A DNA stretch of 64,000 nucleotides from Actinomycetota bacterium. Lineage in GTDB: Bacteria > Actinomycetota > Aquicultoria > SURF-47. The stretch spans positions 540-64,539 of the forward strand of contig QZJE01000013.1 in the NCBI GenBank assembly GCA_003599235.1, written 5' to 3'. Numbering within the stretch: position 1 is the stretch's first letter; each line of letters opens with the position of its first letter. Below the pieces are notes generated by a model. That model saw only the letters and a list, made by a program, of their open reading frames with translations. It did no database searches and was not told the origin of the DNA. The translations under genes were made by a program, and so were the position numbers. Shown one piece after another: positions 24,001 through 64,000 of this stretch.

Positions 24001-24022
24001 AGGCACGGGGACCTGCCCCTAC
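24001..24022 (-). repeat. REP-like GC-rich element (GTAGGGGCAGGTCCCCGTGCCT on minus strand)
   Basis: Same GTAGGGGCAGG head as the REPs flanking the RAYT gene at 61.4-62.0 kb. Sits in the carD-divergent intergenic region. Confidence 0.6.
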
Positions 24023-52351: not shown

Positions 52352-52377
52352 GTAGGGGCACACCCCTGTGTGTGCCC
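52352..52377 (+). repeat. REP-like palindromic element GTAGGGGCACAC-CCCTGT-GTGTGCCC
   Basis: GTAGGGG head plus 8-bp stem GGGCACAC/GTGTGCCC. A related GC-rich segment (GGGCAGGCACGCGACAGGCCCCC) follows at 52401-52425. Confidence 0.65.
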
Positions 52378-60192: not shown

Positions 60193-61218
60193 TTATTTTC
60201 CGTGACAATTTTGACAAACTCCGCGATTATCTAATCTAAGTAGGGCGGAAAAACCAGGCCCTGAGCTAGGACTGCTTTTTGTGGGTTCAACTTGGGCCAT
60301 CACCGTCATATCAACCGAGGTCCCGTGAGCATAATGGCATGTTAAACACTGTATTTGATTATCGGGATCGCTGTTAGGGGTGGTGCCCGTAGCTTTATCT
60401 AACGGCAAAACAGTATCGTTATTTAGAGGATTTTGAAGCTTCCCGGTTTCATCAGTCATGTCTACGCCAACTCCGTGATGAAAGTTCTCGCCTTGAGTTG
60501 GCTCATTGTAGGTGGTATGGCATGATGCACACCAGCCCGACATTCCTTGACCGGCAGTAGTGGGTGTTTTATAAGGCTGGACACCGGTGTTGCCGGCAGC
60601 ATAAGCCGTATAGTTAGGCTGATAAGTGATAAAGGGCGGTTTTCCCTCGCGTGGCATAGTAATACTTTCAGAGCTAAATCCAGCTTCATTTGAGCTTACA
60701 AAACCAGCAACGTTCACCCCGTTAACTGAGTCTCTAAGAAGGCGGTAGTTTGAACTACCATCAGGATTGTGACAGGTAGAGCAGTTTATAACCATAGTTG
60801 TAGAGCCGCCAAACGGAACTGTGCTGGTTGCGCCATCAATAAGATGAGTTGAGGTTACCGCTTTGCCGCCTACCTGGATAAATCCGCCACCGTTTAAACT
60901 ACCACCAGAAATACCATTAAGAGTGCCGCGATAGACACCGCTTTCCACATCGCAATCAGCGCCTTCGACACTTACACCATGGCAAGTTACTAAACAAGTT
61001 TCATACTCGGCAATAGCATTGGTTTGCATAGAATAAACTGACGGAGCAGTTTCTACTCCTAGCTGCTGCTGTATGGGAACGTGCTGACGGTGGCATCCGG
61101 TGCAGGTATCGGCATTTTTCTCGAATGATTTATGTATACCAAAACCAGCCTGGGCAACAGGCACACAGGCACAAAACACAATAACTGCTGCCAGAATGAT
61201 AATTAAGCGTTTTGTCAT
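60193..61218 (-). CDS. Secreted multihaem c-type cytochrome (five CxxCH plus one CxxxCH)
   Basis: 341 aa. Signal peptide. Haem motifs CTGCH, CLVTCH, CSTCH, CASCH, CLTCH, CQNCH. Confidence 0.85.
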   Translation of the reverse strand: MTKRLIIILAAVIVFCACVPVAQAGFGIHKSFEKNADTCTGCHRQHVPIQQQLGVETAPSVYSMQTNAIAEYETCLVTCHGVSVEGADCDVESGVYRGTLNGISGGSLNGGGFIQVGGKAVTSTHLIDGATSTVPFGGSTTMVINCSTCHNPDGSSNYRLLRDSVNGVNVAGFVSSNEAGFSSESITMPREGKPPFITYQPNYTAYAAGNTGVQPYKTPTTAGQGMSGWCASCHTTYNEPTQGENFHHGVGVDMTDETGKLQNPLNNDTVLPLDKATGTTPNSDPDNQIQCLTCHYAHGTSVDMTVMAQVEPTKSSPSSGPGFSALLRLDNRGVCQNCHGK

Positions 61219-61278: not shown

Positions 61279-61326
61279 GTAGGGGCACACGCAGGATAAT
61301 GGGCAACCACGGGGGGTTGCCCCTAC
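61279..61326 (+). repeat. REP element: GTAGGGGCACAC...GGGCAACCACGGGGGGTTGCCCCTAC
   Basis: GTAGGGG head and CCCCTAC tail form an outer inverted repeat; inner palindrome GGGCAACC/GGTTGCCC. About 110 nt upstream of the RAYT gene. Confidence 0.75.
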
Positions 61327-61391
61327 GACAATTGGTCAAAAATACCCCAATAATTAGGGTTATGTTGTTATCAAAATGTATTTATATTGTC

Positions 61392-61421
61392 GTAGGGGGC
61401 GTATTGCAATACGCCCCCTAC
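61392..61421 (+). repeat. REP element: perfect 30-bp palindrome GTAGGGGGCGTATTGCAATACGCCCCCTAC
   Basis: Reverse complement is identical to the sequence. Ends 14 nt before the RAYT ATG and immediately precedes its RBS AAGGGAG. Confidence 0.8.
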
Positions 61422-61434
61422 CTAAGGGAGATAA

Positions 61435-61992
61435 ATGTTACATAACAGACAATCGATTAGATTAAAAAAATACGATTATTCATTACCAGGAGCGTATTTT
61501 GTGACCGTTTGTACGCATCGTAGACAATTTACATTGGGACAAATTGTTAATGTAGGGGCAGGCCCCCGTGGTTGCCCACAAATGATATTAAATAATATTG
61601 GGCAAATGGTTGATAAAACATGGAATGAAATCCCCAATTATTATCATGATATAAATATTGATGTCTTTCAAATAATGCCCAACCATATTCATGGCATATT
61701 AATAATTGATAAATTAAATGTCCAGACATTATTTAATGGGCAACCACGGGGGGTTGCCCCTACAACAAGGAATTTGTCGTTATCCGATATTGTCCACAGA
61801 TTCAAATCAAAGACAACCAATGATTATTTTAAACAAACAAAACAAAATATTTTGTTGCCAATCAAATTGTGGCAACGTAATTATTACGAGCACATAATAA
61901 GAAGCGAAAAGGAATTACAGGAGACCAGAAAATACATTGCCGATAACCCAATTAATTGGAATATGGATAGGAATAATCCGAAAAATATGTAG
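61435..61992 (+). CDS. REP-associated tyrosine transposase (RAYT; IS200/IS605-like HuH Y1 transposase)
   Basis: 185 aa. YDYSLPGAYFVTVCTHRR N-terminus, HuH motif MPNHIHGIL, catalytic-Tyr region WQRNYYEHIIR. Flanked on both sides by GTAG-headed palindromes. TAG stop lies inside the head of the downstream REP. Confidence 0.8.
   Translation: MLHNRQSIRLKKYDYSLPGAYFVTVCTHRRQFTLGQIVNVGAGPRGCPQMILNNIGQMVDKTWNEIPNYYHDINIDVFQIMPNHIHGILIIDKLNVQTLFNGQPRGVAPTTRNLSLSDIVHRFKSKTTNDYFKQTKQNILLPIKLWQRNYYEHIIRSEKELQETRKYIADNPINWNMDRNNPKNM
61552..61577 (+). repeat. REP-like segment inside the RAYT coding sequence (GTAGGGGCAGGCCCCCGTGGTTGCCC)
   Basis: Shares GTAGGGGCAGGCCCC with the downstream REP at 61989. Encodes VGAGPRGCP in frame. 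Confidence 0.6.
61738..61763 (+). repeat. REP-like segment inside the RAYT coding sequence (GGGCAACCACGGGGGGTTGCCCCTAC)
   Basis: Identical 26-mer to the extragenic copy at 61301-61326; identity extends to 29 nt with the AAT prefix. Encodes GQPRGVAPT in frame. Confidence 0.7.
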
Positions 61993-62055
61993 GGGCAGGC
62001 CCCTGTGCCTGCCCAATATCATAAACATAGGGCAACCGCAGGGGGTTGCCCCTAC
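61989..62055 (+). repeat. Composite REP element: GTAGGGGCAGGCCCCTGTGCCTGCCC - 15 nt - GGGCAACCGCAGGGGGTTGCCCCTAC
   Basis: Two GC-rich arms with GTAG head and CTAC tail. Supplies the RAYT stop codon and ends 1 nt before the stop of the convergent 62057..62338 ORF. Confidence 0.75.
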
Positions 62056-62056
62056 A

Positions 62057-62338
62057 TTACGATTGTTGATCCTCGGCGGTTTCGGAGAGCTCGGAGGTTG
62101 TTTCTACTCCTCCTTCTGTTTCCCAGAGTTGCAGCACTTCCTGGACAGCGGTGGTATCCACCAGCGGATCTTCGCTGACTTTAAACCATTCATCGCCAGA
62201 GTAATTATCAAGGTCAAAGTTACTCATATCGATATAGTTTTCGTCGTCAACTATCATGATAACCTCATTAACAGGATTAAAAAAAGTTCCTCGCATCTGA
62301 GCAATATCATCGGTTGTAAAACTTCTGTCCTTAGCCAT
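62057..62338 (-). CDS. Hypothetical small acidic protein
   Basis: 93 aa, strongly acidic, no recognised motifs. Confidence 0.4.
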   Translation of the reverse strand: MAKDRSFTTDDIAQMRGTFFNPVNEVIMIVDDENYIDMSNFDLDNYSGDEWFKVSEDPLVDTTAVQEVLQLWETEGGVETTSELSETAEDQQS

Positions 62339-62425
62339 AACTCTCCTTCGTCTTGTAGTCTATATTCCCATTTACAGATGTTTAAACTGGCAAGCGGGTG
62401 AAATAATTCAATTGACACAAATAAC

Positions 62426-62449
62426 GTAGGGGAGGGTTTTAACCCTCCC
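62426..62449 (+). repeat. REP-like palindrome GTAGGGGAGGGTTTTAACCCTCCC
   Basis: GTAGGGG head; 9-bp stem GGGAGGGTT/AACCCTCCC. About 20 nt upstream of the RBS of the 62469 gene. Confidence 0.6.
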
Positions 62450-62927: not shown

Positions 62928-64000
62928 CTACTTTTCGTGACAGTCTTGACAAACGCCACGGTTAGGCTTACGCAGTATGGCTGTTGGTCCGTTAGCACCT
63001 GCAGTTTTAACATACTCTGCAGTTGTAGCAGGAACAGCAGTACTGGTACCGTGAGCATAGTGGCATGTTAAACAAACCATCCACTGATCTTTTTCAAGCT
63101 CTGTACCAGAATTAGCAGCCAGTGGTAAGTCATCACCATCGACGCTTAACTGAGCAGTGGTTGAAGTACCAGTCCGCTTATCCGTATATATTGTCCTCCA
63201 TTCAGAAAGAGCAATATTAACCGGATGACGGAAACGCTCAGCAGTTTCCCAAGCTTTGTCTGTGCCTGTCCTGGTCTTGTAACTACCTTGGCCAATAGAA
63301 CCACCGCCAGTATAAGGATCATCAGTTGTACCAGATCCTGTCTTAGCGGTTACGTTCTTGTATTTAACGTGGCAACGTTTTCCAGCGTCACCGCCTTTCC
63401 AACAAGAAGCAGAAATACCGGCGTTTACATCTGAATCGGTATGACCAGGAGTCGTACCATCATCAGGAATCCACTTACCTTTACCATACCTGTATTCAGT
63501 ATAGTTTGGTAGGTAGTTTGCTGTACCATAGCTGGCCTCACCAGAACCGATTTGAGGACCGGAGTCGTCATTATCGGTCTTTAACAGACGGTAGTTAGGC
63601 GTGCCATGCGGGTCGTGACAATCACCGCAAGTAAGCTTCCTAAGCTCCCTCAGGTCTGGATCGCCAGTAGCAGGTGGAGCATCAACGCTAGCAGAACTAC
63701 CACCCCAAGCGACATCAGAAGTAGTTTCCCCATCGATATCATGCTTAGAAGTAACAGCTACTCCAGCAAAGTTGGCAAAACCGCCGCCGTTTAAGTTCCC
63801 GTTATGGGTACCTAAAGGTGGGTTTGTTCCACCAGTTTGGGCAGTTTTACGCTTTTCGTTACGGCCGGAAAGATATTTACCGTCAGTAACGTTAGTGTCA
63901 GCCAGAGTGTTAGTATTGCCGTGGCAAGCTAAACAAAGAGCTGAATCACTGTTAGCAGCGCTAACGCCTGTTACGCCACCGTCAATAGGAGTAATAACAA
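62928..64000 (-). CDS. Multihaem c-type cytochrome, partial (N-terminus beyond window end); paralogue of 60193..61218
   Basis: Stop at 62928-62930 (rc TAG). C-terminus ...WMVCLTCHYAHGT...NRGVCQDCHEK parallels ...CLTCHYAHGT...NRGVCQNCHGK in the other cytochrome. Further CxxCH motifs (CGDCH, CLACH) upstream. Not in the ORF track because the start lies outside the window. Confidence 0.8.
   Translation of the reverse strand, partial: VITPIDGGVTGVSAANSDSALCLACHGNTNTLADTNVTDGKYLSGRNEKRKTAQTGGTNPPLGTHNGNLNGGGFANFAGVAVTSKHDIDGETTSDVAWGGSSASVDAPPATGDPDLRELRKLTCGDCHDPHGTPNYRLLKTDNDDSGPQIGSGEASYGTANYLPNYTEYRYGKGKWIPDDGTTPGHTDSDVNAGISASCWKGGDAGKRCHVKYKNVTAKTGSGTTDDPYTGGGSIGQGSYKTRTGTDKAWETAERFRHPVNIALSEWRTIYTDKRTGTSTTAQLSVDGDDLPLAANSGTELEKDQWMVCLTCHYAHGTSTAVPATTAEYVKTAGANGPTAILRKPNRGVCQDCHEK

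Follow-up and report, generated by a model that had tools for sequence, protein, structure and literature searches.

We analyzed a stretch of 64,000 nucleotides of contig QZJE01000013.1 (assembly GCA_003599235.1), here called the window, which comes from an uncultured actinomycetotal metagenome-assembled genome (MAG). It carries one gene for a REP-associated tyrosine transposase (RAYT, or TnpA_REP) within a cluster of GTAG-footed repetitive extragenic palindromes (REPs). An earlier note on this DNA had drawn attention to two GC-rich islands inside the otherwise AT-rich open reading frame (ORF) of this gene, and had proposed either that the gene carries copies of its own substrate or that REPs have entered it without breaking the frame. 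The coordinates, frames and encoded peptides (VGAGPRGCP and GQPRGVAPT) of the islands are as described there, and we find that both descriptions hold. Both islands are REP copies, both are read in frame 0 of the ORF, which remains intact, and their identity to the flanking REPs supports the view that the gene carries copies of its putative substrate. Table 1 lists the features of the locus.

Table 1. Features of the RAYT gene and REPs identified in the window
Feature	Position	Strand	Basis or detail
RAYT / TnpA_REP gene, 185 aa and TAG stop	61435..61992	+	ORF list, Pfam, homologues, fold match
HUH motif codons H84-I85-H86 (NHIH)	61684..61692	+	aligned to E. coli TnpA_REP HMH motif
W146-R156 (WQRNYYEHIIR)	61870..61902	+	profile alignment to 4ER8
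Y motif YIADNP, with predicted catalytic Y167 and N171	61933..61950	+	alignment to 4ER8
Island 1, in-frame REP copy	61552..61577	+	GTAG head on coding strand; codes V40-P48 (VGAGPRGCP)
Island 2, in-frame REP copy	61738..61763	-	GTAG head on non-coding strand; codes G102-T110 (GQPRGVAPT)
Truncated REP head facing the next REP	61279..61295	+	GTAGGGGCACACGCAGG
Upstream extragenic REP	61301..61326	-	identical to island 2
'Double-foot' palindromic REP	61392..61421	.	GTAGGGGGCGTATTG/CAATACGCCCCCTAC; perfect 15-nt arms
Downstream REP supplying the RAYT stop codon via its GTAG head	61989..62014	+	
Downstream REP	62030..62055	-	2 mismatches to the 26-mer
GTAG-footed REP of a different sequence class	62426..62449	+	
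Dispersed intergenic REP of the same general type	52352..52377	+	GTAGGGGCACACCCCTGTGTGTGCCC

Residues 112-170 of the RAYT ORF match the Pfam family PF01797 (Y1_Tnp, IS200-like family), and a search with the protein returned 7970 homologues, including an identical protein recorded from a MAG contig labelled Actinobacteria. The score with the NCBIfam model REP_Tyr_transpos is 51 bits, under the cut-off of 80, probably because of the insertions in the protein. The best solved-structure match of an AlphaFold model built with 33 sequences as input (mean pLDDT 81, pTM 0.77) is the E. coli RAYT in complex with a REP hairpin (4ER8_A; E 1e-6, TM 0.54/0.60). A profile alignment to this structure pairs W146, Q147, E152, H153 and R156 with E. 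coli W94, Q95, E100, H101 and R104, which the available text of PMC6006769 reports as contacting the GTAG guide, and Y167 and N171 with the catalytic Y115 and N119. H84 and H86 of the HUH motif, the WQ motif W146-Q147, and Y167 and N171 are invariant in an alignment of the window RAYT and its 32 best database relatives, which are 50-62% identical to it and come from many phyla (the 33-protein alignment). From the alignment of the HUH, GTAG-contact and catalytic residues to 4ER8 we judge the gene to be intact, with its catalytic residues present along with those that correspond to the GTAG-contact residues of E. coli; by sequence and predicted fold, its product is a RAYT/TnpA_REP, an HUH Y1 nuclease with a putative action on REPs. 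The features of an IS200/IS605 TnpA were not found: the window protein has NHIH and Y---NP rather than DH[VI]H and Y---Q, tblastn detected no second RAYT copy within the 64-kb window, where the gene is single, the NCBIfam model transpos_IS200 gives 23.8 bits against a cut-off of 55, and the ORF list contains no tnpB-sized ORF adjoining the gene.

The evidence that the islands are REP copies comes from their identity to the repeats outside the gene. The 26-mer GGGCAACCACGGGGGGTTGCCCCTAC is present exactly in both the upstream extragenic REP and island 2, as the earlier note had reported, with 0 such matches expected from 100 shuffles. The identity between the two copies extends to 35 nt with 1 mismatch (61297-61331 and 61734-61768), and the additional positions are non-REP flanks, TAAT on the left and ACAA on the right, which points to a recent event of copying or conversion between the REP in the gene and the one outside it. 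The last codon of the GQPRGVAPT segment closes at 61764. Island 1 matches the 26-mer in reverse-complement orientation at all but 2 positions. It shares the 15-nt sequence GTAGGGGCAGGCCCC exactly with the downstream REP (61552-61566 and 61989-62003), a match that had also been noticed before, and it is a degenerate hybrid whose left arm resembles the downstream REP and whose right arm resembles island 2. The two islands form an inverted pair (28 nt, 93% complementary, 158 nt apart). Both stand out by their GC content, 77% for island 1 and 73% for island 2 compared with 29% for the remaining ORF and 40% for the whole window. GGG, the rarest glycine codon of the window, occurs in them three times, and CGG (9% of the arginine codons) once; codon usage by itself is only mildly informative here, and the comparison of four-fold degenerate sites described below is the stronger test.

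Island 2 also folds like a REP. It forms a hairpin with an 8-bp stem and a 6-nt loop (-8.9 kcal/mol, z -2.6 to -3.2), just as the free copy does, and both island 2 and the extragenic copies have the form of canonical GTAG-footed REPs. Island 1 retains the GTAG head and lacks a qualifying hairpin, its own fold not being significant (z -0.6), and is therefore a degenerate REP copy. Of the extragenic copies, the upstream REP and the two downstream REPs all have a GTAG head followed by a GGGC...GCCC stem and are thus 'long' REPs. The two downstream REPs constitute a REPIN-like inverted dimer (-26.2 kcal/mol, z -6.1), and the TAG stop codon of the RAYT gene (61990-61992) falls within the GTAG head of the first of them. 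The double-foot REP folds at -14.9 kcal/mol (z -6.1). We also applied a REP detector, which accepts hairpins with a GT[AG]G foot, a stem of 7 bp or more in which 1 mismatch is allowed, and a loop of 3-12 nt. It made seven REP-foot calls in 61301-62449, with the double-foot palindrome counted once per strand, and did not pick up island 1 or the truncated head at 61279. The rest of the 64 kb contains only two REP-like sites, both intergenic.

We compared the islands with the corresponding regions of homologues, using the 33-protein alignment and a wider set of 80 loci made up of 79 homologous loci (one genome per species) and the window. The earlier note had proposed such an alignment as a check on whether the two segments are insertions, and the outcome agrees with insertion. 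The island 1 peptide is a clean indel of 8-9 residues present in 13 of the 33 aligned proteins, including that of the window. All 33 have the island 2 peptide, which hardly varies: G102, G106, P109 and T110 are identical throughout. This universality is misleading, because matches that share the REP-coded peptide score higher and therefore top the list of relatives. Indeed, only about 13 of the 80 loci have the REP class of island 2, and the rest have unrelated REP classes or none. Across the 79 loci, the loop after the HUH motif encodes differing GTAG-headed palindromes, read for example as VGADPCVCP, VGAGFKPAPT, VGATHASPLR, VGAKNFSPLP, GEHKVRPYG and CRGGSRTAPT. Several loci have no insert in this post-HUH loop, among them L011, L016, L053 and L080; no REP was detected anywhere in the gene at L011, L053 and L080, none in the post-HUH loop at L016, and the catalytic motifs are kept in all four. 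Cyanobacterial and Bacteroidota homologues (L011, L014, L016, L043, L045 and L019) are 37-44% identical to the window protein. Homologues differ in the region after the HUH strand, which spans anything between about 0 and more than 60 residues, and the distance between this strand and the next aligned helix is 13 residues in E. coli TnpA_REP versus 44 profile positions in the window clade. Hence, both islands sit in loops that tolerate insertions. Some homologues (L005, L029, L048 and L049; proteins P0008 and P0019) show in-frame tandem expansions of partial REP segments in RAYT loops, with units that are multiples of 3 nt (GPCAVPK x4, SKPAL/ERAGL runs, TNGQPRDS x3) and loops enlarged by up to about 60 residues.

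The predicted structure, another check that had been suggested, agrees with this placement. In the AlphaFold model, island 1 is a turn or loop between strands E35-39 and E48-52, and island 2 lies within an unstructured loop of residues 101-115 with low confidence (pLDDT about 47). The islands are thus predicted to occupy the loop of the beta1-alphaA hairpin (island 1) and the variable loop between the HUH strand, beta3, and helix alphaC (island 2). In the available text of PMC6006769, a homology model of a Calothrix protein of the same subclass places the beta3:alphaC region peripheral to the DNA-binding and catalytic sites; the peripheral position of the island 2 region would follow solely from that published model.

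We then considered whether the DNA or the peptide is conserved. The REP head GCCCCTAC is translated in three frames across lineages, as APT, xPY (for example RPY) or xPL (for example SPL), and GTAGGGG within ORFs is restricted to the two frames without TAG. We compared eleven loci, of different phyla, that code for GQPxGxAPT. Among these, at four-fold sites of residues identical to those of the window, which served as the reference, the nucleotide was the same at 60 of 71 sites in island 2 (85%) versus 60 of 216 elsewhere in the gene (28%; Fisher p = 2e-17, an optimistic value for sequences that are kin). The observation named in advance as speaking against REP copies, the same peptides encoded by unrelated nucleotides, was therefore not made, as GQPxGxAPT homologues from other phyla use largely the same nucleotides. 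In the island 2 stem, 94% of the stem cells are paired and compensatory changes occur in 4 of the 8 pairs, and these substitutions change amino acids; of 500 stem shuffles, none attained the paired fraction or the covariation score of the real stem, and 2 had as many compensatory pairs. In addition, 14-mers from the loop recur in the 3-kb flanks of their own locus at 27 of 80 loci, versus 170 of 6320 cross-locus pairs. Because of the shifts in frame, the four-fold sites, the covariation in the stem and the recurrence in the flanks, the conservation of the in-gene element acts on DNA and not on the peptide.

In-gene REPs are common in the 80 loci. A GT[AG]G-footed hairpin lies within the gene at 68 of them, in the post-HUH loop at 63 (about 79%) and before the HUH motif at 7. 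The density of REP hairpins per kb is 3.0 in the genes, 0.68 in the flanks and 0.12 in codon-shuffled genes, and the flanking REPs cluster within 250 bp of the RAYT gene. Arrangements with such islands in the gene were found in independent assemblies. The post-HUH loop thus carries lineage-specific REPs in most relatives. The layout seen most often there (39 of 80 loci) has a forward REP and then a reverse one, and represents either an inverted dimer or a double-foot element. The head of the forward REP lies at offsets between +4 and +32 codons from HxH, of which +5 is weakly the most frequent. This spread rules out a fixed ancestral REP site at a constant codon after the HUH motif, and is more readily explained by repeated insertion into a loop that permits it than by a single functional site at a fixed position. 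A stop codon provided by GTAG ends the gene at 13 of the 80 loci, and also in the homologue L083. Twelve of the 80 loci have an in-gene REP and none detected within about 3 kb. The closest homologue, L081 (60% identity), carries both in-gene REPs, and no GTAGGG or CCCTAC head was found in the available 5 kb upstream or 355 bp downstream of it.

These features fit a described group of Y1 HUH proteins. In the classification by Quentin, Siguier, Chandler and Fichant (BMC Genomics 19:475, 2018; PMC6006769), as far as its available text goes, subclass 2.4 has the hallmarks NH[IFV]H, WQ and YIxNNP, a median length of 194 aa, a variable beta3-alphaC insertion and a mean pairwise identity of 40%, and its genes are flanked by GT[AG]G-footed REPs of the 'long' type, with three G-C pairs at the stem foot, and of the 'double-foot' type. 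This subclass corresponds to RAYT Group 4 of Bertels et al. 2017 (PMC5581495). The available text of PMC6006769 also describes in-frame REPs inside the tnpA_REP gene as a unique feature and signature of subclass 2.4, located 'generally' between HuH and Y in a region modelled as a peripheral extension. The window protein, with 185 aa, N83-H84-I85-H86, W146-Q147 and a variable beta3-alphaC insertion, resembles this subclass, as does its gene, which has two in-frame REPs and is flanked by 'long' GTAG-footed REPs and a double-foot REP. Its YIADNP satisfies the Y---NP of class 2 and has D instead of N at the fourth position of YIxNNP, a motif present in most of its aligned homologues. The family is scattered over many phyla and the genomic copy number of the REPs is low; 16-mers flanking Group 4 genes are likewise of low abundance, about 14 per replicon (PMC5581495), which fits the few REPs in the window. 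By motifs, length and REP features, the window gene probably belongs to TnpA_REP subclass 2.4, or RAYT Group 4. It differs in that island 1 lies before the HUH motif, in the beta1-alphaA hairpin, and in its host, an uncultured MAG labelled Actinobacteria, a group that receives no emphasis in the available text of PMC6006769. A search of the wording of another article, PMC8266576, for subclass 2.4, group 4 and insertion within tnpA gave no match. The E. coli RAYT (YafM; PDB 4ER8; subclass 2.2, RAYT Group 2) shares the HUH/Y1 fold, the catalytic Y and N, the GTAG-contacting W, Q, E, H and R, and the flanking GTAG-footed REPs, but has the motifs DHLH, WE and YIHYNP and no REP within its gene.

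In-gene REPs have thus already been published as a family-wide property of TnpA_REP subclass 2.4, to judge from the available text of PMC6006769, and our additions are modest: the evidence from synonymous sites and covariation, the frame filter, the stop codon borne by GTAG, and a second insertion loop before the HUH motif. The conservation statistics at the DNA level and the frame filter are absent from that available text.

We consider it likely, with a probability of roughly 0.8, that the window contains a subclass 2.4 RAYT within a cluster of its cognate GTAG-footed REPs and that the islands are tolerated in-frame passengers that still belong to the REP population. According to this explanation, copies of REPs or REPINs would be laid down preferentially beside and within the RAYT gene, as in single-strand transposition of the IS200/IS605 type. 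The chemistry of insertion would be the single-strand cut-and-paste that spreads REPs, presumably carried out by RAYT itself, and the only survivors would be copies that landed in a tolerant loop and in an open frame. Five of the six frames of the window REP are open, and the sixth has the TAG of GTAG in frame; the closed frame therefore serves to end the RAYT gene. Since both their DNA sequence and the hairpin persist, the islands would still count as members of the REP population, and the in-gene copies may stay REP-like through exchange with, or replacement from, the REPs of the genome and not for the sake of the peptide. Several points weigh against this explanation. Decay would be expected of a purely passive passenger, but the copy in the gene is preserved as well as a free REP is, and the passenger view therefore needs the extra assumption of continuing turnover or conversion. 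At the 12 loci with an in-gene REP and none detected within about 3 kb, and at L081, which has both islands and no REP head in the 5 kb upstream, local partners for exchange are not evident. Finally, the homologues are kin, so that the four-fold and covariation statistics overstate their independence.

The main alternative, though an unlikely one, is that a function in cis maintains the in-gene REPs, either as an element through which RAYT, a host RNase or the ribosome throttles RAYT expression, or as a protected 'seed' copy. In the seed version, the enzyme and its substrate would be inherited or transferred together, and a transferred RAYT gene could re-found a REP family. Two elements are candidates, the island 2 hairpin alone or a long stem between the islands. 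Folding of the RNA of 61530-61790 pairs island 1 with island 2 in a stem of about 27 bp (minimum free energy -95.6 kcal/mol, z -7.4), which in RNA or single-stranded DNA would enclose the HUH-coding segment. However, such a strong predicted stem is expected from any inverted repeat, and the layout is confined to the subset of homologues with the pre-HUH insertion; island 1 is present in just 13 of the 33 close relatives and has lost its hairpin, and the long-range stem is therefore not a conserved feature. In favour of a role in cis, besides the predicted stem, are the 85% identity at synonymous sites of island 2 versus 28% elsewhere, a hairpin kept through compensatory substitutions that change amino acids, and retention of a REP in the post-HUH loop by about 79% of the relatives. 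The 12 loci and L081 with in-gene REPs and no detectable flanking ones also point this way, as does the inclusion of non-REP flanks in the 35-nt identity between the in-gene and upstream copies, and there is a precedent in the hairpin control of IS200 transposase expression cited in PMC3733652. On the other side, all catalytic motifs are preserved in the genes at L011, L053 and L080, in which no REP was detected, and in that at L016, whose post-HUH loop has none; REPs in the loop differ widely in position, copy number and orientation; and turnover of the REP population accounts for the conservation without a role in cis. If true, a cis function would bear on the persistence and self-regulation of RAYT-REP systems, and would explain the fixed synonymous sites and hairpin across phyla and the in-gene REPs without REPs nearby.

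It is very improbable that the direction was the reverse, with the REP family derived from a stretch of the RAYT gene whose fragments were copied out to intergenic DNA. The presence of GQPRGVAPT in all 33 closest proteins, and the 4 further nucleotides on each side that the upstream copy shares with the in-gene copy, would agree with such an origin, but the universality reflects the search bias described above, with only about 13 of the 80 loci having the REP class of the window. Moreover, REPs are found in all frames and both orientations, the 26-mer class is dispersed, mostly far from RAYT genes and often as inverted dimers, and RAYTs of the E. coli type have REPs and no such segment. The idea that the islands are functional protein motifs resembling REPs by coincidence, or assembly artefacts, deserves next to no credence: G102, G106, P109 and T110 are invariant in the 33 proteins, but the coincidence is refuted by the translation of the DNA head in other frames in other lineages, the conserved four-fold sites and the stem covariation, the island 2 region is modelled with low confidence, the exact 26-nt identity to the extragenic copy has an expectation of 0, and the arrangement recurs in independent assemblies.

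A metagenome scan for the 26-mer class gave 134 matches, of which 118 were in stretches without RAYT and 57 had a partner in inverted orientation no more than 70 nt away; the class is a genuine repeat with a dispersed distribution. For 102 of the 134 matches, the REP fell in a frame free of stops over 100 codons or more; these were not counted as intragenic, because in most of the 22 longest frames, which we inspected, the REP was near an end of the frame and the DNA was GC-rich. On three metagenome contigs (L193, L110 and L173), the 26-mer class lies deep within long stop-free frames unrelated to RAYT, in one case at codon 222 of 971, where it encodes GQPRGVAPT. Such frames may be other genes with REPs inserted in frame, of the kind described by Di Nocera et al. 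2013 (PMC3733652), who found GTAG/CGTC REPs in frame inside many unrelated genes.

The intragenic REPs of PMC3733652 are like those of the window in being short palindromic repeats in frame in functional genes, read as tolerated in loops or termini. They differ in their hosts, which are unrelated genes (DNA repair, polymerases and others), whereas here the host encodes the putative enzyme of the repeat itself; the supplementary tables of PMC3733652 have no 'transposase' entry among the REP-decorated ORFs. The window also resembles REPINs (Bertels and Rainey 2011, PMC3116915), since the inverted REP dimer at 61989-62055 has a 15-nt spacer and forms one long hairpin, and 39 of the 80 loci have a forward and then a reverse REP in the post-HUH loop. 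The islands themselves differ from REPINs: they are 158 nt apart and enclose essential coding sequence, and are therefore not a REPIN unit. Among repeats found in coding sequence, the Rickettsia palindromic elements (RPE) of Ogata et al. 2000 are reportedly also inserted in frame in protein genes.

The locus is an example of a published oddity, a domesticated transposase gene decorated in frame by the repeats that are the putative substrate of the transposase. It is also of use for annotation, as peptides such as VGAGPxACP and GQPRGVAPT in MAG proteins are translations of REPs and not protein motifs. Such REP-coded peptides inflate similarity scores among otherwise distant RAYTs.

Some further features of the window were observed. 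The 30-nt double-foot palindrome stops 13 nt ahead of the RAYT ATG, and a Shine-Dalgarno-like AGGGAG (61425-61430) follows immediately after it; this hairpin could influence transcriptional read-through or translation initiation of RAYT. GTAG-footed REPs of other classes lie near the RAYT gene (62426-62449) and in distant intergenic spacers (52352-52377 and 24001-24022). Of these, GTAGGGGAGGGTT..AACCCTCCC and GTAGGGGCACAC..GTGTGCCC are intact and one copy is degenerate. A single RAYT thus shares the window with REPs of more than one class. Directly upstream of the REP cluster is a gene on the minus strand (60193-61218) for a 341-aa multihaem c-type cytochrome (Paired_CXXCH, MtrC/MtrF-like). 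A 50-aa ORF located 1.7 kb further on (62928-63080, minus strand) echoes the C-terminal CLTCHYAHGTS...C(Q)xCH motif of this cytochrome and may be the end of a cytochrome paralogue or of a disrupted gene.

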